A DNA stretch of 63,296 nucleotides, the filler included, from Asterionella formosa (Eukaryota): assembly GCA_002256025.1 (NCBI GenBank). It is 26 parts of 26 records of this genome, joined end to end, with 100 filler letters (N's around TTAATTAATTAA, not from the genome) between each part and the next. Parts side by side here need not be neighbours in the genome. Positions count along the whole stretch, not along the records: positions 44,612 to 46,077 come from NKIB01002313.1; 25 more parts are not named here. One strand, given 5' to 3'. Below, piece after piece: positions 1,573 through 46,722 of this stretch. The position numbers and the translations under genes are program-made. Below the pieces are notes generated by a model. It had not been told where the DNA came from. It worked only from the letters and a program-made list of their open reading frames with translations, and did no database searches. Position 1 is the first letter of the stretch; each line of letters opens with the position of its first letter.

Positions 1573-3042
1573 ATCAGCGGACCCTACGCGAAATCCGCTG
1601 TTGGCAATCAGTACTGGGTCATGGCAGTGGACGACTACACAAGAAAGCGCTGGAGCTATTTCATTAAAAAGAAGAGCGATATCGGAACAGTCATTGAAAT
1701 TTTACTATCAAGTTTAGCCGGAGCCGGTCACAAGACAAAGTATGTCCGTTGCGATGACGCAGGCGAGAATACTAAACAATTGAGAAAGGTATGTGAAAAT
1801 CGCGGTATAAAAATGGAATTCACTGCCCCGCACACTCCACAACACAATGGTGTAGTGGAACGCGGTTTTGTCATTGTGCGACAGAGGGCACTAGCAATGA
1901 TGCTAAGTGCGAAACTAACAGATGAGTACCAAGGGCTATTATGGGCAGAGGCGGTACATACAGCTACACGTTTAACAAATAGTACAGTTAACTCAGTAAC
2001 TAAAAGAAGTCCCGACGACATGTTCTACGGCGAAATGAATCCAAGAAGGCCCTACAAGTTATACAAGCAATTTGGGCGCGTAGGATGGGTTACTGCAAGA
2101 CACAGCATTAAGAAATTAGACGCACGTTCTTTCAAGTGTGTCTTTTTGGGTTATTCGGAGGACCACTCCCTAGATACGTATCGTATGTTTAATCATGAGA
2201 CTAACACTGTAATCAATACACGCAATGTTAAGTGGAGTGAGTGGCATGGAACAAACGCACCTATGGACGGACTAGGAAAAATCTACAAGGACAATGCTAA
2301 AGAGAAAGTAACAGTTCAACCAGAAGCTGAAGTCAATAATGATGGATTAGATGATGATTTCTACAATGAAGATTTACTACCAGAAGTTTCAGACAACAAG
2401 GAAGATGACGACGACAACGATAAATCAACCGCAGACACTGAAAAAGGAAAATCTACCTCAAGGAGTGATGAAATTTCTGACCTAGAAAAGAGAAATGTTT
2501 TGAAGCAACAGGCAAAGTTGGAACGAGAAATGAAGAAGTTGGACTCATCGTACAATCCAACTAAAAATGTTAAATTTCCTCCAGACACTTCACTACCAAA
2601 TGTGATTGAGGAGGAAGCTTCTTTGAATAAGGAAACTGAAGTAAATTTCGTATTCAATGCAAGTCTTGCATCGGACCCAGGTTTACCAAATAGTTATGAT
2701 GAGGCAATGGTAAGACCTGATCGCAAAGAGTGGATGAAAGCTATAAAGAAAGAATTTGAAAACTTCAAAGCAAGAGGAGTATGGAAAATAGTTAAGAGAA
2801 ACAATGACGTGAACAAGAGAGCTCTTAAGACAAGATGGGTCTTCTGTATTAAGGAGGACGTGATAACTGGAAAGACAGTATACAAGGCACGGTTGGTTGT
2901 AAAGGGATATGAACAGATCCCGGGAGTTGATTTTACTGAAACATTCGCTCCTGTTGCAAGTGATGCTACAATAAAAACTGTTCTGGCTGTTACTTTGTAC
3001 TACGGTTGGATAGCGGAAGCAATTGACGTTGAAGCAGCGTTT
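1573..3042 (+). mobile_element. Ty1/Copia pol fragment: integrase core followed by RT N-terminus, open across the contig
   Basis: AVDDYTR / VRCDDAGEN / TPQHNGVVER (D,D,E); KCVFLGYS; KARLVVKGYEQIPGVDFTETFAPVA; IN-before-RT order. Confidence 0.95.
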
Positions 3043-3203
3043 NNNNNNNNNNNNNNNNNNNNNNNNNNNNNNNNNNNNNNNNNNNNTTAATTAATTAANN
3101 NNNNNNNNNNNNNNNNNNNNNNNNNNNNNNNNNNNNNNNNNNGAACCGTTGAATACATTGCCATGTTCGTTTTGTTCTAATTCGACTCTTTTTGAATTCA
3201 AAG

Positions 3204-3398
3204 TGATGTATCTAACTAGAAGTAGTAGTATTTGTTGAATATATGAGCTTATTTATTAATCCTTATGTACAACTCATTTCCTGAAGTGACATCAAAGTAT
3301 AGAATGGGTGTTAGTCGAGTTCTCTCATTATTGAATTCCGATATATTTGACATAACCCTAACTCTATATATATCTGTATCGATGTGTAGGATTGCTCA
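3204..3398 (-). mobile_element. 5' LTR (195 bp, TG...CA) of the Gypsy family seen at 58703-59950
   Basis: Reverse complement matches 59755-59950 with 6 substitutions and 1 indel; followed on the minus strand by a putative PBS and an ATG at 3164. Confidence 0.9.
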
Positions 3399-3539
3399 CC
3401 AGGTACCCGGTACCTGGTACCTGCAAGTTGGGGTCATTTTGCCGAAAATGGAAGTTGGCGCCGGCAAGCACTTATACTCGACTCGCCGCTATTATTACTT
3501 AGACATTTAGAAATCTTTAACGGTTTCGCGCTAAATTAC

Positions 3540-10559: not shown

Positions 10560-10890
10560 ATCTACATTAAATTTAATTCATGTAATTCCAACCTTTTTCT
10601 TTCAATATTACCTGGAGGTCTTTGCAAACCCATGTTAGCAATTCTTTCAGAAGTACCAGGCATTACATCCAATTTCTCAACGCTCGAAGGGACATTCTAT
10701 AAGTCTTTTCAAATGCGTCCTCATGACACAGCTTCTTGACATGAGAATGCCATGACATTCTCTCATGCTCCCATTTCGCCTTCCTCTTTTTAACTTTCGT
10801 TTCAGCCTCCAGAGCCAGATGACAAAGGATAAAGAATTGATCATGGTCATCGTAATCAAAGAATTGATGGTTGTTTTCATTATCAAAAAA
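10560..10890 (-). pseudogene. Internally deleted Harbinger-type transposase remnant
   Basis: Manual translation KWEHERMSWHSHVKKLCHEDAFEKTYRMS (N-terminal-like) joined almost directly to IANMGLQRPPGN (C-terminal-like). Confidence 0.5.
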
Positions 10891-10992
10891 TTNNNNNNNN
10901 NNNNNNNNNNNNNNNNNNNNNNNNNNNNNNNNNNNNTTAATTAATTAANNNNNNNNNNNNNNNNNNNNNNNNNNNNNNNNNNNNNNNNNNNN

Positions 10993-11630
10993 TGCATTTT
11001 TGTCAAGAAACTTGTTTAAAAACATTTTAACATCTGACACTTTACGACGTTCACATCCAATATCAGGATTATCAGCATCCTCAGTTGAAACCAGGCAATC
11101 ATGACAAACATATCTTCGATATAATCCATTACCACCCCTGAAGCCACAAATTTTATTGTGTTCTTCTGTATCACCAATGATCATTCCAACTTGGAAATAA
11201 ACTTTTGTCATACCAAGACCATGAACCCAAATATCGTATGACTTGTTTGGATCTTCGAAAGGCGACAATAGAAATCCTGTAACAGAATGATATAATTTGA
11301 GTCTACATAAGGACAAGTCGTCACCAGATAACTTATTATTCATTTGTTTTTCCTAGATCACTGACTTCAATGTCTGGCAAAAAAGATACTAATTGCCATC
11401 CATCAACTTTTTTTCTTCCTTCTAACGTTAAGTTTAACATTGTCAGCAAAAACGGATGCTCGGAATGTTTCATTTATTTATCAATAGGTGAACCATCCCA
11501 TCACTGAAAACTGCTAGGGCAACAAATAAACACCCTGTCTTCAACACTCCATTTTCTGATGCAGGAGAATTGTTGAATGCATTTTCAAACCAAGTCGCAG
11601 AAGTACAGCAAACATATTTGATAAGAATAT
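10993..11630 (-). pseudogene. Plavaka-like transposase fragment (N-terminal catalytic part), disrupted
   Basis: ALAVFSDG/SPIDK*..SEHPFLLTMLNL..GWQLVSFLPD; LYHSVTGFLLSP; MIIGDTEEHNKICG..CHDC; frameshifts and a stop. Confidence 0.6.
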
Positions 11631-24909: not shown

Positions 24910-26541
24910 TTATGTGAACTCAATAACCTCATAACGAGGTGCTATTGTAGGCTCCAAGTCGGTTCCGTCCTGTCTTGTTCGCTTCCACAACCACATGCTC
25001 CGTAACGCACTATCAATTTCTTCCACATTCATCCCACTAGTCTCTGGAACTGCCAAAAAGGCAAACACGACGCCGAATGCCGTCACTAATCCATACAGGA
25101 CAAAGACAGCACAAGAACCCAATATGGATTGCATGGAAAGGAACGTGGAGGTTACCAAGGTAGCTACAAGATATGTCACAACTGTGGCGGACCCGAGGGT
25201 GCGACCTCGAATGTTGGTCGGAACGAGTTCCGAAGTTAGTAACCAGGTCAATGGTCCAAATGAGAAGGAGTATCCTATGACGACACATAATACACCAATC
25301 ATTGCCCAAGGTATGCTGTCATAAGAAGTGACCAAGCCTTGTCGAAAGGCAATAGCAACAAGGAATTGACCAACGGCCAAAACTGACATTCCAATCAGAA
25401 GAAGTAGCCTGCGACCGACGTATTCTATCCTCCATATGACCAGAACTGTCACCGAAAGTTTAACAACGCCGATATATACCATCACCAAGGTGTTTTCCTT
25501 CTCCAAGGATGAAAAGATACTAGGTGTAAAGTTCAAGACTGACGCTTGTCCCGAAAGTTGTTGAAAGACTGCCAAGAAGAGTGCTATGCTAATTTGTTTG
25601 TGATAAAGCGAAATTGTTTCATAAAGTTTTCGATGCCGTCCTGATGAAGGCGATAATATCACCGTACTGGATAGAGTATCGCACTGGTCATCTGTGTTGG
25701 GCGAAGGTTGACCTCGTGCTGGGATGTCTAGTTGGTCGTTGGCTTCGGTTCCTCCTTCCTCATCAGTTGGAAGTTGTTCTTCACCTCCGTGAATCATTCT
25801 AAGAGCTGCATTGTGTTCCTCAATTCTTCCTTGCTCTTTCAACCATAGTGGGCTCTCTGGCAGGGTCCACATGCCAACCAGTTGCAACAGCGCTATGATC
25901 CCGCTAATGCCAAACATATAGCGCCACCCACTGGCACGTTCGTTCAGAAGAAAGCCAGCTAAAAAAGCAAAGAGAAACCCCAGAGAGATACAGCCTTCAT
26001 TGACACTTACCAATGAGCCTCTCCAGTCTACAGGAGCCATTTCATGTAGGTAGGCCACATCAGCAATCCCCGAAACAGAAATACCAAAGCCAACAACGAT
26101 CCGACCTAGATAGAGAACATGCACTGACGTCGCCAAGAACAATATGGCTGCACCTGCTATAAAAATCCCGTCGGTAATTAAAATGCCCGTCTTGCGTCCC
26201 AGTCTATCGCAGATAATCCCACCAAAGCACGCACCCAAGCCAGCACCTAAATAGAGAAGCCCTACGACGCCTTCTTGCTGTCGCTCAGATAGATGGAAAT
26301 CCTCCTTGAGTTGCGGCAGAGCACCAGCAACAACCCCCATATCATACCCAAATAGAATTCCACCAAGGGATGCCATGCATGTTGCTTTCACGACAAAGGG
26401 CGGAATCGACATGAGGGGGCCTTCTCGCTTTGCGGTCATGGTGGAAGTGACGACAGCTAATGTCAATGGAGTCAAGGGTGATTGTGGACTTGCTTCATCC
26501 AGTGCAGAAGCCCCTCTTCGTCGACGAGATGTCCAAGCCAT
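24910..26541 (-). CDS. MFS sugar porter (GLUT10/12-like)
   Basis: GGILFGYDMGV, DRLGRK, YLHEMAP..RG, PESPLWL, QQLSGQ, VGRRLLL, PETSG. Confidence 0.93.
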   Translation of the reverse strand: MAWTSRRRRGASALDEASPQSPLTPLTLAVVTSTMTAKREGPLMSIPPFVVKATCMASLGGILFGYDMGVVAGALPQLKEDFHLSERQQEGVVGLLYLGAGLGACFGGIICDRLGRKTGILITDGIFIAGAAILFLATSVHVLYLGRIVVGFGISVSGIADVAYLHEMAPVDWRGSLVSVNEGCISLGFLFAFLAGFLLNERASGWRYMFGISGIIALLQLVGMWTLPESPLWLKEQGRIEEHNAALRMIHGGEEQLPTDEEGGTEANDQLDIPARGQPSPNTDDQCDTLSSTVILSPSSGRHRKLYETISLYHKQISIALFLAVFQQLSGQASVLNFTPSIFSSLEKENTLVMVYIGVVKLSVTVLVIWRIEYVGRRLLLLIGMSVLAVGQFLVAIAFRQGLVTSYDSIPWAMIGVLCVVIGYSFSFGPLTWLLTSELVPTNIRGRTLGSATVVTYLVATLVTSTFLSMQSILGSCAVFVLYGLVTAFGVVFAFLAVPETSGMNVEEIDSALRSMWLWKRTRQDGTDLEPTIAPRYEVIEFT

Positions 26542-27417: not shown

Positions 27418-28785
27418 TTACTCGACTTCTTTGACAACCGCCTTGGCTCGATGAGATTCGTGCTTATAAGTACCAGGTTTTGAATGTTTGATACGGTTCG
27501 ATTGCTTTCGGTCTGTCTTTTCTTTTTGAATTTGCGTTTGAGCAATTTGCTTCTTGATGACTTTTGGTACCTTTCGTGATTTTGAAATTTTGGCCACTTC
27601 CGGCATGTGTTGAAATCGTTTGACAAGGGCCTGTCGATACTCTACAGCTGCCTGTTCTCGGGCTGTTCGCTGCCCCAGCTGCTCACTCGCAGTAGCCTTC
27701 CATAATCTAAGATTTGTGTCATCCGAACCAGAGACAATGTACTTATTGTCAAGTGTGTAGTGAACTGTAAAGACTCGCTGCATTCGCTTTGCATGATAAA
27801 TATCTCGCGACGTTCCTCCCTTTTGCGGAAAGATTCGAAGTGTCCTATCGTATGATCCCGTGACAAATTCCCTACCTGCAGGAGACCAGGAAACACTCAT
27901 AATGGCACTTGTATGTCCGCGAAAGATGCGTGTTGGAGCCTTTAGGTTTCGCATGTCAAACGTATATGCACAATGATCTTCATTACCGACGACAAAATTC
28001 ATGGGTTCCATGGGATTCCATTCCAGGCAGTTGGATCTCATTTGCAGGATAGTTTTCTTGAGAGCTGACCCTGCACGGGTATCGTGGAGACCAATACCTC
28101 GATCCGCAGAGCAATGTGCTAGCAAACATCTTTCTGCAGGATTGTAGCGCACCACGTTGACTGTATCGGCAGAGCCCCACAGATCTGAGTGTCTCTGGAT
28201 AGGAGCAGACCGTTCTGGCGACCATATGCTGACGGCGTCGTCCGAAGCAGTGGCAAATTCACTGTCGAACCAGTGATGGTCGATTGACTTGAAGGATCCA
28301 TTTGTTCTCCACGTCTCAAGCGGGTCGTGCGTCATTTCACCAGTTTCCTCGTTTCTTGAGCCAGAGATGGACCAACACCGAACCAAACCATCATCTCCGC
28401 ACGAATAAAAGCGCTGTCCATCCAGTCCAAAAACTAATCCTGTTACTACTCTTGAGTGTCCCCCAGACAGGACGGCCACCTCCGTTCGACTCGTCAAATC
28501 CCATAATTTAACTTCCCCGTCCGCCGACCCACTCACAAAGGGTACTAACGCTCTTCTCGACGTGGCTGACGCCGTCACGGCATCGGTATGTCCATTTCCG
28601 AGGTTTCCAATCAAAGGCTTGGCAAACATGCGATCGATTTTGGCCGATGTGACTGCTCGGGTGTATTCGCGAGCTCGCTGAAACGGGTGGTTTGCAGGAT
28701 CCAAGTTACGATGATGCATGCGAAGATCACCTGAACATTCTCTTGATGTCGCAGCATGGGAACGGGAGAGCGCCTTGACCTTCAT
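27418..28785 (-). CDS. SOF1: SSU processome WD40 protein Sof1/DCAF13
   Basis: MKVKALSR, HPFQRAREYTRA, WNPMEPMNF, SRDIYHAKRMQRVF, SGSDDTNLRLWKA. Confidence 0.96.
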   Translation of the reverse strand: MKVKALSRSHAATSRECSGDLRMHHRNLDPANHPFQRAREYTRAVTSAKIDRMFAKPLIGNLGNGHTDAVTASATSRRALVPFVSGSADGEVKLWDLTSRTEVAVLSGGHSRVVTGLVFGLDGQRFYSCGDDGLVRCWSISGSRNEETGEMTHDPLETWRTNGSFKSIDHHWFDSEFATASDDAVSIWSPERSAPIQRHSDLWGSADTVNVVRYNPAERCLLAHCSADRGIGLHDTRAGSALKKTILQMRSNCLEWNPMEPMNFVVGNEDHCAYTFDMRNLKAPTRIFRGHTSAIMSVSWSPAGREFVTGSYDRTLRIFPQKGGTSRDIYHAKRMQRVFTVHYTLDNKYIVSGSDDTNLRLWKATASEQLGQRTAREQAAVEYRQALVKRFQHMPEVAKISKSRKVPKVIKKQIAQTQIQKEKTDRKQSNRIKHSKPGTYKHESHRAKAVVKEVE

Positions 28786-29347
28786 GGGGAAATTTGAGCT
28801 CCTCCACTGACATGAAATGAACAAATTTGTCAACACAAAAATATCAAATATGGTTTTATATTTTATATGTACGAGCCATTCTTCAACGGTATTTCACATC
28901 AATCAGGTGGCTCGTACAAGGTACCAGGTACCAGGTACAAGGAAACTACTGAAGGCCTGGTACTACGTCAGGCCTAACAGTCGTATCTGTCATATTTTCA
29001 TTTACCCTACCTACCGGTACCGGCACAGGTAGTTCAGCCATGAATAGTAAACCGCCATTTCTTTTGCTTATGATTTTATCATAAAGTCATATTGAGGGAA
29101 TGGGTGGCCAGCATGCATTCCTGTGTACAATACTCCTTGCTTAAAGGAATTACTAGTGAGAATCTCTGTTTTTATGTATAGGTGGCGATTTAATCGCTGA
29201 ATCATGCTATGAATTGAAGACGTTCTCTACTTAAGATGAAATTAGCACCTGACCGGACACACGTTCACGGTTCAGGAAAATGACCGCAACTTGCTGCTCC
29301 ATACAAATGCTTTTCTCCAGCTTGCAAATGGAAGAGTTGATTCAGAT

Positions 29348-30913: not shown

Positions 30914-32671
30914 ATGACGAATTCCAACGGCAGCACCTACAACTTCGCTGGCAACTACAATGAAGACTTTTCCCAAGGACCTACGCTTGCTCCTTTGCAG
31001 CATCACGACACGCAACCGCCACAACCTCCCAAGAAAGCCAAACACCGTCGCAAACGACATGTTCCTCCAGGCCCAGCAGGGCTCTGGTATCAATCGCAAC
31101 TCCACAAGTCTAGCGCACCGCGTAACAGTGTGCAGCAAGACTCGGAACAAGACGGCACAGCCACCGCTGACGTCTCCAGCTGCCCCGCGTGGATGTGTAT
31201 GCAGCTATCGGCCGATCTCTTGACTCCATTTTTGCCGCCGTACTTTACGGCCAAGCAGCGATACAATGTTTTGAGGAAGATAGTTCCGAACGAGTACACC
31301 TTTTTAGAGGAGATTCAGAGACCCGAACACGAGTTGAACATTTCCAGAAAACTCATTGTGTTGGTGCACGCCATTCAATGTCATTCATACTGCGACTGGA
31401 CCGTGGACCTACGAGATGAGTGTGGATCCCACATCAAGGCATGGTGTAGTCCGACGCTAGTTACGAGAGAGCAAGAACAACCGAAGTTATTACGGCCAGC
31501 CGTTGTTTGGTGCTTGCAAAATGTAACGATTCTACCGTCATTTGAAGGAGAGTTGTGGTTGCTACTAAACGAGGAGTCCTTTCAGAGTATTTGGGCTGCA
31601 GAGACTGTATCTGACGAGGCCTATTTGGAATGGATGGGAAAGCGCGAAAAAATACAGTTTGAACAAAAGGATTTAGATCCAGAGCAAGACGAAGATTTTA
31701 GTAAGGCCGAGTCAAGTCGACAGGATTCCAGTCAATCTGAAGGGGAAGATAACGATTATCTTGGTATAGCCCAACAGCAAAACCTCGCGATGAATGCCAG
31801 TACAGAACCTCCCACTGAAATCGGACTTCCAATAATTGATGTGAACGCAACATCCTTTATGCCAAGTCAAGCTCAAAGAAATCCGATTGACGATATCTTT
31901 CCGTGCAGTGCAGTTGCTGAACTTGATTCACATGTTCCATGTCAAGACCATGCCGCTAGCGACGACATGAGTCGCTTGCCTATTCTAAAGCCTATGCGAC
32001 AACAGAAACCGCCACTTCCGACCCCGTATCAAGCTCAGCAACCGCCAGTTCTGTTGCAACGAAATAAGTCACCGCCGTTCGTCAACCAGACAGTGTCACC
32101 TGCCAACTTGCAAGCTTCACTATCATGTTCAAGTCCAAATGATTTGTCCTTGCCTCAAAATGCAATTCCAGGTTCAGAGGCTGCTCCACAGAAAAATTTT
32201 GTGGAATTCAAACACACCTCGGGATCAGTCGATCATCAAACGCAACATAATAGCTGTCCTCGAAAAGAAACATCAAAAAGCAAGGAACGAAAAGTAGATC
32301 TTGGTGCCTTTACAGCTAGGTCACTGTCACTTAAGCCAATGAGGAGCACCAATTCGATGACCCCTCAAAAAGAAAAGGTCGGCGCCAACACGAAGAAAGC
32401 TCAAAAGTCTTCAAAGCTTTGGGAGGCTGCAATTGATGATGACATGATAGGCATCTTCGATGAGGAGAACGAATCAATTGCAATGGTTGTCGAAACAACG
32501 ATAGAGAAGTGTGCGCCAATAGTGTGGAATCATCAGCAAATTGAAGAAAGCAAAGATTCGAAAGGACCCAAGAGCCTAGAAGAACGAATGGGACAAGGAA
32601 ACTTTGTTTCAATGTTTGATGAAAGCAACTTTGGTGGCATGGACATGGATGATCTTTTCGCGGACGATTAA
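30914..32671 (+). CDS. HROB/MCM8IP-like (DUF4539) OB-fold protein
   Basis: PPGPAGLW motif, then VDLRDECGSHIKAW..LRPAVVWCLQNVTIL..LLLNEESF; long disordered tail. Confidence 0.65.
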   Translation: MTNSNGSTYNFAGNYNEDFSQGPTLAPLQHHDTQPPQPPKKAKHRRKRHVPPGPAGLWYQSQLHKSSAPRNSVQQDSEQDGTATADVSSCPAWMCMQLSADLLTPFLPPYFTAKQRYNVLRKIVPNEYTFLEEIQRPEHELNISRKLIVLVHAIQCHSYCDWTVDLRDECGSHIKAWCSPTLVTREQEQPKLLRPAVVWCLQNVTILPSFEGELWLLLNEESFQSIWAAETVSDEAYLEWMGKREKIQFEQKDLDPEQDEDFSKAESSRQDSSQSEGEDNDYLGIAQQQNLAMNASTEPPTEIGLPIIDVNATSFMPSQAQRNPIDDIFPCSAVAELDSHVPCQDHAASDDMSRLPILKPMRQQKPPLPTPYQAQQPPVLLQRNKSPPFVNQTVSPANLQASLSCSSPNDLSLPQNAIPGSEAAPQKNFVEFKHTSGSVDHQTQHNSCPRKETSKSKERKVDLGAFTARSLSLKPMRSTNSMTPQKEKVGANTKKAQKSSKLWEAAIDDDMIGIFDEENESIAMVVETTIEKCAPIVWNHQQIEESKDSKGPKSLEERMGQGNFVSMFDESNFGGMDMDDLFADD

Positions 32672-34263
32672 AATCGCTGTAGAACATAGAGACCATAGTA
32701 CAAAAAGCATTCGATCTTGGTGCGAAATGATGGTTGTCTCCGCTTGTCATTATCAGCAGTTGACATCAACTCTAGCGGATTTTTATCGTCTTTCAATATA
32801 ACTCGGACTGCACTTTCCTGCATTTCGTTCCCAGCATAATTAATATTTAGTAGCCAGTACTTGTCATACGTCTCATTATTGGGGCTGTAATAATTTCTGA
32901 CTTGATCAATGGAAACGACGTGAGCCAATGGATTTCGGATGTAGTCAGAGGCTGGATCCCAAGACAGCGACCACCCTTCTGGACGTTCAAATGACAAGAC
33001 ATGAACAACTTGACAGCCAAACATTTCCGATAACTTTTTGTCTATTTCGTTTCCTTCATCATTCATCCCTAATTCATCATCGTCTTGGTAATCTTGTGGT
33101 TCCTCGTCGCATTCGTTTTGTTCGTCATCTTCGTCGATGTCATTCCACTCTCCATTCCCGTCCTCCTTGGAAAGATCCAATCTTGGTGGAAACCTCACGA
33201 CAGGAGGAAGGATGGCCTCGGCTCCGTTTTGTTTGATAAATCCTTCTATTTTTTCAGGCAAATCATTCAACAGCTTCTCCAAATGTTCTAATGCTGTGTC
33301 TCGCGCACTGGTCGGTCCACTTACGATTGTTTCTCTCCAGGCATCATCTTGCAACAAGAAATGCTGAATAGCCTGTGCAGTGACAGCGGCGTAGTTTGTT
33401 GCCATCAGGCTGACATTGATACTTACACCTGGTTCCAATGTTTCTACCTTATGCCACATTCCAGCTGGGAAGTAAAGCATATCACCAGGTGTAAGAGTGA
33501 CAGATTGTGTCTTTCCTACCGAATTAGTAGCGTTGTCGGGTGGCCCGAAGGTAAAGGTGTCGTGCGACAAATGAGCCGCCTTGAGTTGGGATTCGACGGT
33601 ATCGGGGGAAGCATAGTGGGGCGTACATCCACGAAGCGGATACTTGATGGTAGATGACTGTAAGTTCCATCTCTTGCTTCCCGATAGTTGGATGGTAAAA
33701 TTTTCTTGAAAATCATAATGCCAATCCGTCGTGTGGCCGGTCGTTCCGAAGAACACTTCAACTTCGCCACGGCCAAGAGATGTGCTGGATTGTCCCGTCG
33801 GATCAAACCCTCCACATCCTAATCCAGTCCCTCGTAGCAGATGATATACCATGGGTTGCTCGACAGTGGGTGGCGCGCGACAATATGTGGCATGGCCTGC
33901 CCTGTGAAGCGCAATGGCGTGTTCCACGTCCTGCAGTTCGAGCGATGAAATCTTCCCGTCCGGCTGTGTCAGCCAGAGAAAGACGTGTTCTGATGACGTT
34001 TCCCTAAAGATAGACTCCGCTTCCAAGTCGTACATGTTTGTTGCGATGAGTTCGGTTACTCTGGACGCGTCATTGTGCACATATAGTGCCTTGCTTCGAA
34101 AGATTCGGGTCAAGAAGTCGTTCGAGGAAAATGGCGCAATCATTTGCTCCAACAGATCTGAGTCATGAATATCAAAGGGACGTGCGCCTTGGCATCCATG
34201 TGCGACAATCACAGGATCGTTTTCATCGCTCCGCCGTTGTTTTTTTGTTCCAGCTTCCATCAT
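32668..34263 (-). CDS. JmjC/cupin 2-oxoglutarate-Fe(II) oxygenase (RIOX/NO66-like)
   Basis: WHYDFQENFTIQLSGSKRW (HxD) and PGDMLYFPAGMWHKV (distal H). Confidence 0.85.
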   Translation of the reverse strand: MMEAGTKKQRRSDENDPVIVAHGCQGARPFDIHDSDLLEQMIAPFSSNDFLTRIFRSKALYVHNDASRVTELIATNMYDLEAESIFRETSSEHVFLWLTQPDGKISSLELQDVEHAIALHRAGHATYCRAPPTVEQPMVYHLLRGTGLGCGGFDPTGQSSTSLGRGEVEVFFGTTGHTTDWHYDFQENFTIQLSGSKRWNLQSSTIKYPLRGCTPHYASPDTVESQLKAAHLSHDTFTFGPPDNATNSVGKTQSVTLTPGDMLYFPAGMWHKVETLEPGVSINVSLMATNYAAVTAQAIQHFLLQDDAWRETIVSGPTSARDTALEHLEKLLNDLPEKIEGFIKQNGAEAILPPVVRFPPRLDLSKEDGNGEWNDIDEDDEQNECDEEPQDYQDDDELGMNDEGNEIDKKLSEMFGCQVVHVLSFERPEGWSLSWDPASDYIRNPLAHVVSIDQVRNYYSPNNETYDKYWLLNINYAGNEMQESAVRVILKDDKNPLELMSTADNDKRRQPSFRTKIECFLYYGLYVLQRF

Positions 34264-43877: not shown

Positions 43878-44511
43878 TGTTAAATTGTCTAGTTGAAATA
43901 TCACAGATCTTACTTTTAAGATCTCTAAAGCTGAAAACGTATTTTCACTTTACACTTTGTTAATATTGTGAGCTTTCTGTTAATAGTCTATCTAGTCTTG
44001 TTCTTGCCTGATTACTCATGTAATCCCGAACAAGACTTCTCACACTTTCCTTGATCCCGTCAAAATGATCTTGCTTACTTTGACAATAAGTAAGCATATT
44101 CATTTGACAATAAGTGAGCAGCACTTATTCTTTTGACAATAAGTGAGCATCTGATTCACTTGTCAATAAGTAACATCTCCAGTCATTTGTCAATAAGTAA
44201 ACATCTCCAATCCAGTCATTTGTCAATAAGTAAACATCTCCAGTCATTTGTCAATAAATGACGAGATGTTTTTGGGTCTTGGTTTCTAATCACTACTAAG
44301 AATATTGATTCTCGATTCGTTGGATTCCATATATTTTATCACCCTCCCTGATCTCGAAACCAACAATCCATGGTCCCATTCATAATGTGGGTTGCATGAG
44401 TGTCATGAATTTTCTGAGTGACATTCTTTGAAAGTAGGTCTGCAGGATTCTTTAAAGTATTCACATAGTCAACTCTAATATCCCCAGCCTTCACCTTTTC
44501 TCGAATGAAAT
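43878..44511 (-). mobile_element. Copia 3' end: RNase H C-terminus, PPT and 464-bp 3' LTR (44341-43878)
   Basis: Manual translation FIREKVKAGDIRVDYVNTLKNPADLLSK..DQGG*; PPT AGGGAGGG directly before TG; LTR TGATAAAAT...AATTTAACA with internal tandem repeats at 44080-44260. Confidence 0.88.
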
Positions 44512-44611
44512 NNNNNNNNNNNNNNNNNNNNNNNNNNNNNNNNNNNNNNNNNNNNTTAATTAATTAANNNNNNNNNNNNNNNNNNNNNNNNNNNNNNNNN
44601 NNNNNNNNNNN

Positions 44612-45728
44612 TATATAGGGGGTAGGGAATCCAGAGATGAATATCATGACTCCATTCCGATAGTATTGAGTACTTTCGACAATTGTAACATCATTAACTC
44701 GAGTTGGATTAAGGTTGAATTCTAGTGGATATCGAGCCGTTGAAGTCAGAACGAGGCCATCATAGAGGTCATCAGCGGACAAAACAATGCCTTCAATTGT
44801 GAAACTTAGCAAAAAGTCGAGCTTTGTTGTTTGTACAAAAGGAGAGTGAGGGAGGATGGTGGCAAGCATAATTCATTATTTCGCTTTCTTTTATATTACT
44901 TACTGAGTGGCCGTTCCAGAGGGTTGTCACGAATTTAGTGATGGTGGAAATGTCAACATTATCAATCTTGCCTATTTCAAATGTAAAAACTGTGAGATTG
45001 ACATTGGTTCGATTCGTTATTTCGATGAAAAGCTCTGGATCTGGAATAATACCCAGGACATGGTAATCTCCAGGAGCTATTAAAGAAAGTTGTTTCCCGA
45101 TTGTCCAATTAAGGTTCCCTGGGTAAGGAGGATCTTTGGATGGAGCTAATGTCGGAGTGTGTGATAGTGCGTTTGTGCTATCACTACCTCTTTTTAGTAG
45201 AGGGGGCAAAGTTCCCGCAATCACTCCGGCAAGAACAAGGACGAATAGTGCTATCCAAATCACTGGATATTTTGAGCGTTCCTTCGCTGTCGTTCCTTCG
45301 ATGACAAGCACTGGCGCTCTCACTATACTATATATGCCCACGACGCTTTCAACCGATGCATTAATAGGAGGATTCAAACCTGAAGTGGAATTGGAAGCAC
45401 CTTCCTGTTGTGGCATTTCAACATGATGATTTTCAATGTTGTATTCTCTGGGCAACGAGGCTCCAGCGTCATGATCATCTTGCGACCCAGTATTGTCGAT
45501 AAGGCTTTGTTGTTCGGTTGCCGCTTCGTTTATCCCGACAAGCGTTGTTGCTTTTTCTTGATGCTCAATCAACCAATTCTCGACATTTGCATCGTTCAAG
45601 TCTCTGTCCCTTGTGTGTTGCTTGATCTCCTCGTCTTCCTGACTACCGGTAGACGCCATGGTCTCAACACTAACATATTCCTTTACTTCGGACATCTCAC
45701 CGCGAACTCTGAAAACATTGCTATCCAT
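44612..45728 (-). CDS. Single-pass membrane protein with a possible fasciclin-like domain; intron 44903-44822; 3'-partial
   Basis: TM segment VIWIALFVLVLAGVIAGTL; NLTVFTF, LWNGHS|LDFLL, RNGVMIFISG. Confidence 0.6.
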
Positions 45729-45895
45729 TTGTTTCTAATTCAGATTCGACACAGCAGATTCATAGTAACTTCAGCTGATAGAATATATCATTTTCCGTAT
45801 TGTATACCAGTATTATATGTATATAGCAAAAAGGGTTACCGGTACCCGGTACATATTTGTCTTCAACATTTGCTCGTCGTGGATACATGCTGAAG

Positions 45896-46077
45896 GCAAT
45901 ACACGCCCGAGGTGGTCTCTTGCCTGCGAGTATACATGTGTTCGAGGCTGGGTGGCGCGAGTAGGTTGACCGTACGAGTGGCGCCCCCGGCGCTGCGAGA
46001 AGGTCACCCTACGAGTGCCATCCCAGTCGAGTACACATGTATACGAGAAGGCAAGTAGCCGCCGAGAAGGGTATTGT
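45896..46077 (+). other. Rod-like fold-back element with five in-register CGAG/CGAG motifs (structured RNA or ssDNA)
   Basis: Arms pair stem by stem around a CCC loop at about 45986-45988; wobbles are G-T on the + strand. Confidence 0.8.
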
Positions 46078-46177
46078 NNNNNNNNNNNNNNNNNNNNNNN
46101 NNNNNNNNNNNNNNNNNNNNNTTAATTAATTAANNNNNNNNNNNNNNNNNNNNNNNNNNNNNNNNNNNNNNNNNNNN

Positions 46178-46722
46178 CACATAGCTATAGTTATAGAATG
46201 ATTCTGATTAGAATTTCATTTTCATATCGCTCGCTCGTTTCTGCATTTGGCATACTGAACTTGAATTAACTATTGAACTCGTCCGCATCTTTGATACCAT
46301 CAAGAGAGCGAAAGCAAGTGGCTCTTTTCATTGTTGTTTGCTTGTAGAAAGAATTTGATATCCGTATCATCATTTGCTTGTTGGAATTGTCCGTTGCCTC
46401 AAACCTGCTTGGCGTGTGCGTACACACACTGTCGACTTGTTTTCATTGGTATGTTGTTCTTGTATTGTATTCACTGTTGAACTTGTCCGCATCTTTGTTA
46501 ACATCAATAGAGCGACAAGTGGGTTTCTTCATTGTTATTTGCTCCTGGAAAAGTCGGTGTCCGTGTCATCCTCATCAATAGAGAGACAAGTTCTTTCGCT
46601 GGAAAAATTGGTACTCATGGTATCATCATTCGCTCGTTCGAACCATTGTCCGTTGCCTCAAACCTGATTAGCGTGTGAGTACCGGCATGTGCACTGTCGA
46701 CTTTAGTACATTACAGGTAGAG
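46178..46722 (+). repeat. Interspersed repeat family A (copy 3)
   Basis: Close match to the reverse complement of 13665-14030 up to ..TTACAGGTAGAG. Confidence 0.85.

Follow-up and report, generated by a model that had tools for sequence, protein, structure and literature searches.

A contig-truncated hairpin with ten same-strand CGAG words is probably the core of an abundant fold-back repeat of an alga

Several classes of sequence are known to fold back on themselves. Miniature inverted-repeat transposable elements (MITEs) are about 200 nt long and non-coding, reach about 10^3 copies, often lie near genes, fold as hairpins and nest with other such elements. The Foldback (FB) elements of Drosophila have long inverted arms with little in the middle, and inversions, deletions and rearrangements are frequent among their copies. 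The REP/BIME, Correia and RPE repeats are small, dispersed, non-coding hairpins with periodic features. The terminal hairpins of parvoviruses and poxviruses are long and imperfect, exist in both orientations and carry mismatches that mark the orientation. At the level of base pairing, the 5'-YGAR-3' context is that of tandem sheared G.A pairs, and kink-turn (K-turn) and loop-E types carry G.A motifs. We know of no described family with five or six periodic G.A loops in one rod. All of these systems share features with the subject of this study, a hairpin at positions 45896-46077 of a 63,296-nt stretch of the Asterionella formosa assembly GCA_002256025.1 (the window, meaning the whole stretch that was analysed). 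We conclude that this hairpin is the contig-truncated core of an abundant, young, non-coding fold-back repeat of a eukaryotic alga, one that is probably mobile (MITE-like and non-autonomous). We put the probability of this reading at roughly 0.75, a figure that covers the identity as an abundant fold-back and probably mobile repeat and does not extend to the single-strand model discussed below.

The sequence-only reading had described the segment as a rod with five CGAG/CGAG oppositions, and folds of both strands bear this out. CGAG starts at 45908, 45927, 45943, 45958 and 45975 on the 5' arm and at 45996, 46012, 46028, 46044 and 46063 on the 3' arm, in the places and the register first described, with spacings of 19, 16, 15, 17, 21 (across the loop), 16, 16, 16 and 19 nt. 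The word CTCG is absent from 45896-46077, and its closest occurrence is at 45873. As RNA, the + strand has a minimum-free-energy (MFE) structure that consists of one rod with an apical loop. In it each of the five 5' words faces a 3' word in register and gives C-G, G.A, A.G and G-C, as tandem sheared G.A motifs do. The predicted energy is -108.4 kcal/mol (z -10.1; 0 of 200 shuffles as good), with 68 pairs, of which 61 are Watson-Crick and seven G-U. The - strand folds less well, as had been proposed, at -85.2 kcal/mol (z -6.3). With DNA parameters, 45888-46077 gives -50.8 for the + strand against -44.2 for the - strand. The alignment of the two arms holds six G.T or T.G mismatches and two C.A, both of the latter in a poorly aligned basal segment. 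The stem units between the CGAG words are unrelated to one another in Tandem Repeats Finder (TRF) and direct-repeat comparisons.

The CGAG array is not a product of chance. Ten occurrences compare with the 0.46 that the window's own frequency would predict (Poisson 7e-11). Sliding 182-nt windows with at least six CGAG number 158 of 63,114, which fits sliding over the hairpin locus alone. A chance origin of the array is thereby excluded, and the ten same-strand words are a genuine, non-random feature of the family consensus, or master sequence. Five double substitutions to one word cannot come from the decay of a palindrome. With CGAG in the consensus, the arms mismatch as symmetric tandem G.A pairs on the + strand and as pyrimidine-pyrimidine loops on the - strand. 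In the RNA energy model CGAG/CGAG scores -27.7, against -25.6 for CUCG/CUCG and -33.9 for the fully paired stem; among the 16 self-opposed C-NN-G loops only CAGG/CAGG is equally cheap, and none is cheaper. At 2.1 kcal/mol per loop, the five loops contribute 10.5 kcal/mol to the + strand's advantage of 23.2 kcal/mol in this model. The mean loop spacing is about 16.5 nt, or about 1.5 helical turns in the A-form.

The abundance of the hairpin was read from public sequencing runs. A 478-base query was run against them, and the contigs and word depths of runs X1, X6, X12 and X15 were compared with 45300-46077. The full query is present in one run, X1 (share 0.83), which is the best-matching run and may be the assembly's own source. 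Word depth in X1 is 1.09-2.36 million in the hairpin bins (45898-46077). The flank has 690 (45482-45689) and 556 (45846-45871), so that the hairpin is deeper by a factor of about 1,600-3,400. The X1 contigs that match number 8098: 2620 at 99% identity or more, 3811 at 95-99% and 1667 at 90-95%. Multiple copies had been proposed from the break of the contig inside the hairpin, and the copy number is on the order of 10^3 in this alga's genome. The contig breaks where it does because the hairpin belongs to a high-copy repeat family. The idea of a discrete single-copy non-coding RNA gene fails for a repeat of this abundance.

The left boundary of the repeat is sharp. Contigs of X1, X6, X12 and X15 cease matching at 45886-45890, and their leftward flanks are unrelated and all different; the repeat therefore starts at about T45888 (TGCTGAAGG...), eight bases before the hairpin start first described. 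The left junction of the window copy is real in the X1 data because a 126-nt contig (X1 record 4) bridges it, with 0 differences and at flank-like depth. Dispersal in many flanks agrees with the mobile or repetitive context that had been suggested for the hairpin. Few sites vary at about 10% of depth or more, and decay across the family follows a CpG pattern. Joints that skip 91-109 nt lead from the unit at 45931-45942 to the unit at 46032-46043, both nearly self-palindromic (e.g. 45926>46028, 45928>46030 and 45933>46033). Together with loose ends at positions 46028 (X1) and 45946 (X6), they show that some copies take a short form of about 90 nt. Stem unit 2 (45931..45942) is the site both of these slip deletions of about 100 nt and of a compensated variant, to which we return.

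A second DNA copy was found on metagenome contig L001 (1185 nt), the sole contig from an exact-pattern scan of metagenome contigs. It is identical to the window copy at 189 of 190 bases. The end of the window contig falls inside the element, whereas the L001 copy passes the equivalent of 46077 and continues as ...GTATTGTTGAGGCA. The core, TGCTGAAGGCAATAC...GTATTGTTGAGGCA, is about 197 nt in total and nearly all stem, with a 3-nt loop. The leader TGCTGAAG in L001 opposes TGAGGCA on the far side, where a sixth purine-rich loop, a degenerate one, arises at the junction TGAAG/TGAG. The L001 core is flanked by a further 32-nt inverted pair at 84%, which extends the structure to a 255-nt palindrome. 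Its predicted energy is -159.7 kcal/mol (z -13.3), and that of the opposite strand is -134.3. The rightward continuation (GAGGCA, ATT, six variable bases and CTAGCTATCGTC) is also seen in loose ends of X1 (8 contigs) and X6. Exact-pattern scans of viral contigs with four patterns and of the genomes of 185,579 prokaryote species with two patterns returned 0 matches.

Further copies were traced via spurious open reading frames (ORFs) predicted across copies in other assemblies. An ORF over the left flank of L001 ("flank A") has 49 related clusters at 60-100% identity, on contigs of up to 23 kb. The motif of the outer arm, or terminus (...GGGAATTGC), is in 37 of the 49 clusters, and 33 of these 37 have at least eight residues after it. 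The tails that follow the motif are unrelated and copy-specific in 25 of the 33; three are weak matches, and five are the hairpin core (one in + and four in - orientation, the + case being L001 itself). Tail-to-core matches of P0017, P0023 and P0025 (E 0.005-0.03) were counted as chance. Since the tails mostly differ from copy to copy, the outer arm of L001 is the end of another abundant non-coding repeat, here called element A. P0001 and P0007, missed by the motif pattern, are two more - cases of an A terminus abutting the core. About one fifth of the A termini seen adjoin the hairpin core, at the same junction, and the order in L001 is A terminus, core, A-type terminus.

The ends of the two repeats resemble each other. 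GGCAAT/ATTGCC occurs 12 times in L001 against 0.6 expected, a 20-fold enrichment. Element A ends GCAAT...ATTGC, and the hairpin ends GCAATAC...GTATTGT (GTATTGC in X6) share these bases. Ungapped, the hairpin arm matches the two termini of A at 18/32 and 16/32 positions, which is suggestive at best: among 156 GCAAT-anchored control windows none reaches 18, three reach 17 and ten reach 16. The similarity is not significant, and we do not claim that the hairpin arm is homologous to an A terminus beyond the shared ends. Element A in L001 holds direct repeats spaced 68 nt apart (D1-D3). A second A-like terminus (D7), to the right of the L001 hairpin, suggests an A derivative of roughly 224 nt.

The copies differ in orientation and are often rearranged. 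An ORF over the L001 core has eight true relatives (P0001-3, P0005-8 and P0010) with flanks that are unrelated or shared, and the copies in unrelated flanks include P0003 and P0006. P0004 (2840 aa) and P0009 (an RHS-repeat protein) were dropped as chance matches of repetitive proteins. With orientation and REARRANGEMENT mapped on L001, P0001, P0002 and P0007 have flank A and core on opposite strands, while P0005 is colinear with L001 and holds about 1.6 cores. The outer two units of P0010 are in + sense and its inner part is in - sense; X12 record 13 is the converse. Internal deletions are present in P0003, P0008, P0036 and P0043. Beside the same neighbour the core thus lies either way round, and the family is liable to inversions, slip deletions and duplications, as a long palindrome would be. 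The rule that CGAG keeps to one strand has exceptions, since the hairpin is reversed, wholly or in part, in some copies.

The repeat has the descriptive features by which MITEs are known. It is short (about 197 nt), non-coding, high-copy and dispersed in unrelated flanks, and it has inverted termini. The whole element is an inverted repeat, with the ends TGC...GCA and GCAATAC...GTATTGT. Only short spurious ORFs without family match run across the core. An Rfam scan of 44000-48000 and of L001 gave no match on the element, in keeping with the view that it belongs to no described RNA family; the sole hit was a 5S rRNA in the next contig. ARAGORN returned 0 tRNA genes. Other classes were tried and rejected. 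A short interspersed nuclear element (SINE) was rejected for want of a tRNA-, 7SL- or 5S-derived head (Rfam, ARAGORN), and an FB-type element for want of tandem subrepeats in the arms, where TRF gave 0 rows and the only direct pair is one of 24 nt at 75%. The loops are symmetric 2x2 with no 3-nt bulge in the MFE fold, which speaks against a K-turn of the L7Ae type. An integron attC site or other prokaryotic single-stranded DNA (ssDNA) hairpin was set aside given the eukaryotic host, the 0 prokaryote matches and the absence of a linked recombinase; box motifs were not searched. The literature searched holds no description of such an element in the parts available, and the repeat libraries (Repbase, Dfam and the supplement of PMC7466962) could hold relatives. 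PMC7466962 applied MITE-Hunter to the genome of a diatom; neither "hairpin" nor "palindrom" occurs in the available part of its text.

The design of the arms raises the question of selection on the fold. In X12 record 13, a diverged copy, unit 2 is changed at three adjacent bases in both arms and still pairs (TATTCTTGTGTT with TACACAAGAATA), and CGAG is retained on both sides of the compensated unit. Selection on a single-stranded fold is plausible. We suggest tentatively that the master copies may have been selected to fold as a single strand, either as a + strand transcript or as ssDNA. The CGAG loops, about 16.5 nt apart, would serve as periodic marks or contact points, and they might also prevent a perfect long palindrome or a perfect long double-stranded RNA. 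A stronger proposal is that the family propagates through a hairpin intermediate that is single-stranded and strand-specific, made of ssDNA or RNA and perhaps hairpin-primed, in which the evenly spaced G.A loops would offer contacts to a dedicated protein. We regard it as rather unlikely. Such an intermediate would explain both the flip/flop forms and the missing target-site duplication. If true, propagation or recognition of this kind would be a mode not described for nuclear repeats of algae.

Several observations count against a mobile repeat or against selection on its fold. Mobility is read from dispersal, and no empty site was found. No transposase, Rep, recombinase, reverse transcriptase or autonomous partner was seen in searches that covered less than the whole genome. 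Most right junctions seen run into an element A terminus, which makes the right boundary uncertain, and the mobile unit may exceed the core. No target-site duplication is evident in L001 (...GGGAAT, core, ATTCCC...), the sole copy with both flanks as DNA, where a 2-bp AT duplication is indistinguishable from a palindromic target; P0003, read through its codons, has no obvious flanking repeat. About one third of the query's sampled words, equal to the hairpin-sized part, occurs in 19 further rows (15 studies in all). Runs from marine, lake, sediment, subsurface and industrial-waste samples hold shares of about 0.3-0.47, and some contigs of X12 and X15 are 100% identical to the hairpin. Its presence in unrelated metagenomes reflects either a cosmopolitan host or carry-over of a very high-copy sequence between libraries, and could thus be something other than wide distribution. 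All the extra copies come from short-read assemblies, in which palindromic repeats can be mis-joined, and single cases need care.

The remaining points of this kind concern the fold. CGAG is not invariant: CGAG>CAAG (CpG to CpA) accounts for 9-13% of depth at 45928, 45959 and 45997, and the word decays as CpG sites in general do. The seven or so G-T wobbles that the sequence-only reading had counted are present in the fold as seven G-U pairs, but at least two of them, at 46027 and 46077, are G-C in other copies. The T>C change at 46027, which turns the wobble into G-C, makes up 32% of depth in X1 and 83% in X6. The two wobbles look like C>T changes of the window copy's sub-lineage and not like fixed design. 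With DNA parameters the loops differ little between strands (-15.4 vs -15.0 per loop). A compensated stem change with CGAG kept was seen in X12 record 13 only. It is one of three diverged copies with both arms of unit 2 readable, and the stem changes of the other two, P0001 and P0003, are uncompensated in their translated ORFs, a protein-level reading. Arm-to-arm conversion or inversion could also mimic covariation.

The same evidence bears on other explanations. The rod could be the product of a multi-copy hairpin-RNA gene family, transcribed and working as RNA (as a small-RNA precursor or a protein scaffold), with dispersal as a secondary matter. The 23 kcal/mol advantage of the + strand in the RNA model would suit this, as would a loop that is the cheapest symmetric one as RNA and hardly distinct as DNA, and a spacing equal to 1.5 A-form turns. 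Six of the rows with about one third of the sampled words are RNA libraries, and a 383-nt contig of the RNA library X15 matches 45901-46077 with 0 differences at a depth of 28.4, with none over the flank. However, RNA libraries can hold DNA, and the contigs reveal neither strand nor ends. The repeat has no Rfam match and tolerates CpG decay and deletions, its copies lie either way round and some are inverted in part, and no promoter or defined transcript ends were seen. We consider an RNA gene family unlikely. A relic or working end of a hairpin-primed replicon (rolling-hairpin or hairpin-telomere), with the mismatches in flip and flop forms, is less probable still. It would account for a core that lies in both orientations beside the same flanking terminus, for the inversion of the inner part alone in P0010 and X12 record 13, for a boundary that is sharp on one side and meets many different flanks, and for mismatches that are the sole positions marking orientation. 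Yet the copies are chromosomal and dispersed, and that of the window has a fasciclin-type gene 160 nt downstream of it on the other strand's reading, being upstream of that gene. No linked gene, whether Rep/NS1-like or other, was seen, the four viral-contig scans gave 0 matches, and arm inversion or insertion either way is a simpler account of flip and flop.

The very high copy number, the strong dyad symmetry and the failure to find a target-site duplication would suit a structural chromosomal repeat, for instance a cruciform former at centromeres, origins or boundaries, whose spread would be by recombination and not by transposition. We give this little credence: the flanks are many, unrelated and single-copy-like, including the upstream region of a gene, the repeat is regularly associated with another transposon-like terminus, and it is not tandem. 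It is hardly credible that the hairpin is an artefact, i.e. an adapter, a spike-in or a fold-back made by the assembler at a contig end, even if it is located at a contig end and its words appear in many unrelated metagenomes, some at 100% identity. Diverged variants run to thousands and show CpG-type decay and slip deletions, and the junctions of the family lead to many natural flanks, including the contig that bridges the left junction at flank depth. Copies in independent assemblies lie beside another natural repeat, and the hairpin is imperfect, whereas assembler fold-backs are perfect palindromes.

The window in which this fold-back repeat was met, 1-63296, comprises 26 separate contigs, of which 25 are 1464-1471 bases long (sorted by length) and one is 24,113 (14131-38243). 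They are joined by linkers throughout and are separate pieces, so their order and adjacency have no meaning. The last 182 bases of the contig at 44612-46077 are the hairpin, and a linker comes next (Table 1). An ORF at 45728..44793 (-) starts 160 nt to the left of the repeat; it shares 92% identity with the N-terminal region of fasciclin-domain proteins (PF02469) that are 493 residues long. The reading frame of this fasciclin-type gene (44564-45728, -) shifts near 44793-44869, at an intron or a frameshift, and the gene continues off the contig start. The genes of the 24-kb contig are plainly eukaryotic and encode Sof1/DCAF13, a JmjC protein, a sugar transporter and WD40 proteins. This long contig has long ORFs and is apparently intron-poor; three ORFs of 400-590 aa are without Pfam match. 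A complete 5S rRNA gene lies at 47863-47981 (-; 98.8 bits, E 1.5e-21) on the contig after the hairpin contig. Positions 10875-10892 and 10993-11010, at a contig end and the start of the next contig, are about 89% complementary over some 18 bases, possibly by chance. An inverted-repeat scan of the whole window returned N-linker palindromes only, and the 63-kb window holds no second copy of the hairpin and no element A.

Table 1. Coordinates of the repeat, its parts and other features, in window positions except for element A.
Feature	Position	Strand	Remarks
Fold-back repeat core, one copy	45888..46077	+	190 of ~197 nt; last 7 nt lost at contig end
TGCTGAAG leader	45888..45895	+	Belongs to repeat; outside hairpin as first described
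Hairpin 5' arm	45896..45985	+	Five CGAG
Apical loop CCC	45986..45988	+	MFE structure
Hairpin 3' arm	45989..46077	+	Five CGAG; contig stops at the arm's last base
Stem unit 2 (TATACATGTGTT)	45931..45942	+	Pairs with 46032-46043; nearly self-palindromic
Stem unit 2' (TACACATGTATA)	46032..46043	+	Partner of 45931-45942
Element A in L001 (1-1185)	1-433 and 625-about 848		Reverse-complement coordinates
Assembly linker N44-TTAATTAATTAA-N44	46078..46177	.	Joins unrelated contigs; not biological sequence
MFS sugar transporter ORF	24910-26541	-	Long contig
Sof1/DCAF13 ORF	27418-28836	-	Long contig
JmjC protein ORF	32668-34263	-	Long contig
WD40 protein ORF, 860 aa	34662-37244	+	Long contig

As a repeat family the hairpin is ordinary genome furniture, but its design is not ordinary. 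It is a 90-bp inverted repeat broken every 15-19 nt by one same-strand tetranucleotide, which is the least costly symmetric mismatch on one strand only. If the master copies were selected to be so, nature would here have tuned a mobile element to the folding of one strand in particular, and structural studies would have tandem G.A motifs at hand in a ready-made array. In practical terms the repeat serves as a high-copy marker, leaks into many metagenomes and gives rise to breaks and inversions in assemblies. Among the described systems, MITEs are the closest in size, copy number and setting; here the element is all stem with a 3-nt loop, and its arms differ at five regularly spaced, identical same-strand tetranucleotides, whereas ordinary inverted-repeat decay does not produce same-word differences between arms. 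FB elements share the long arms and the frequent rearrangements, but their arms are arrays of tandem subrepeats, while the units here are unrelated to one another and the element is much shorter. Unlike the terminal hairpins of parvoviruses and poxviruses, the present hairpin exists as about 10^3 dispersed nuclear copies, with no linked replication gene seen and no match among the viral contigs scanned. The REP/BIME, Correia and RPE repeats are bacterial and have arms of tandem 5-9-nt words, whereas this repeat has a 4-nt punctuation and a eukaryotic host. K-turn and loop-E motifs carry the same kind of G.A pairing, but here five or six such loops are predicted to stand periodically along one rod.

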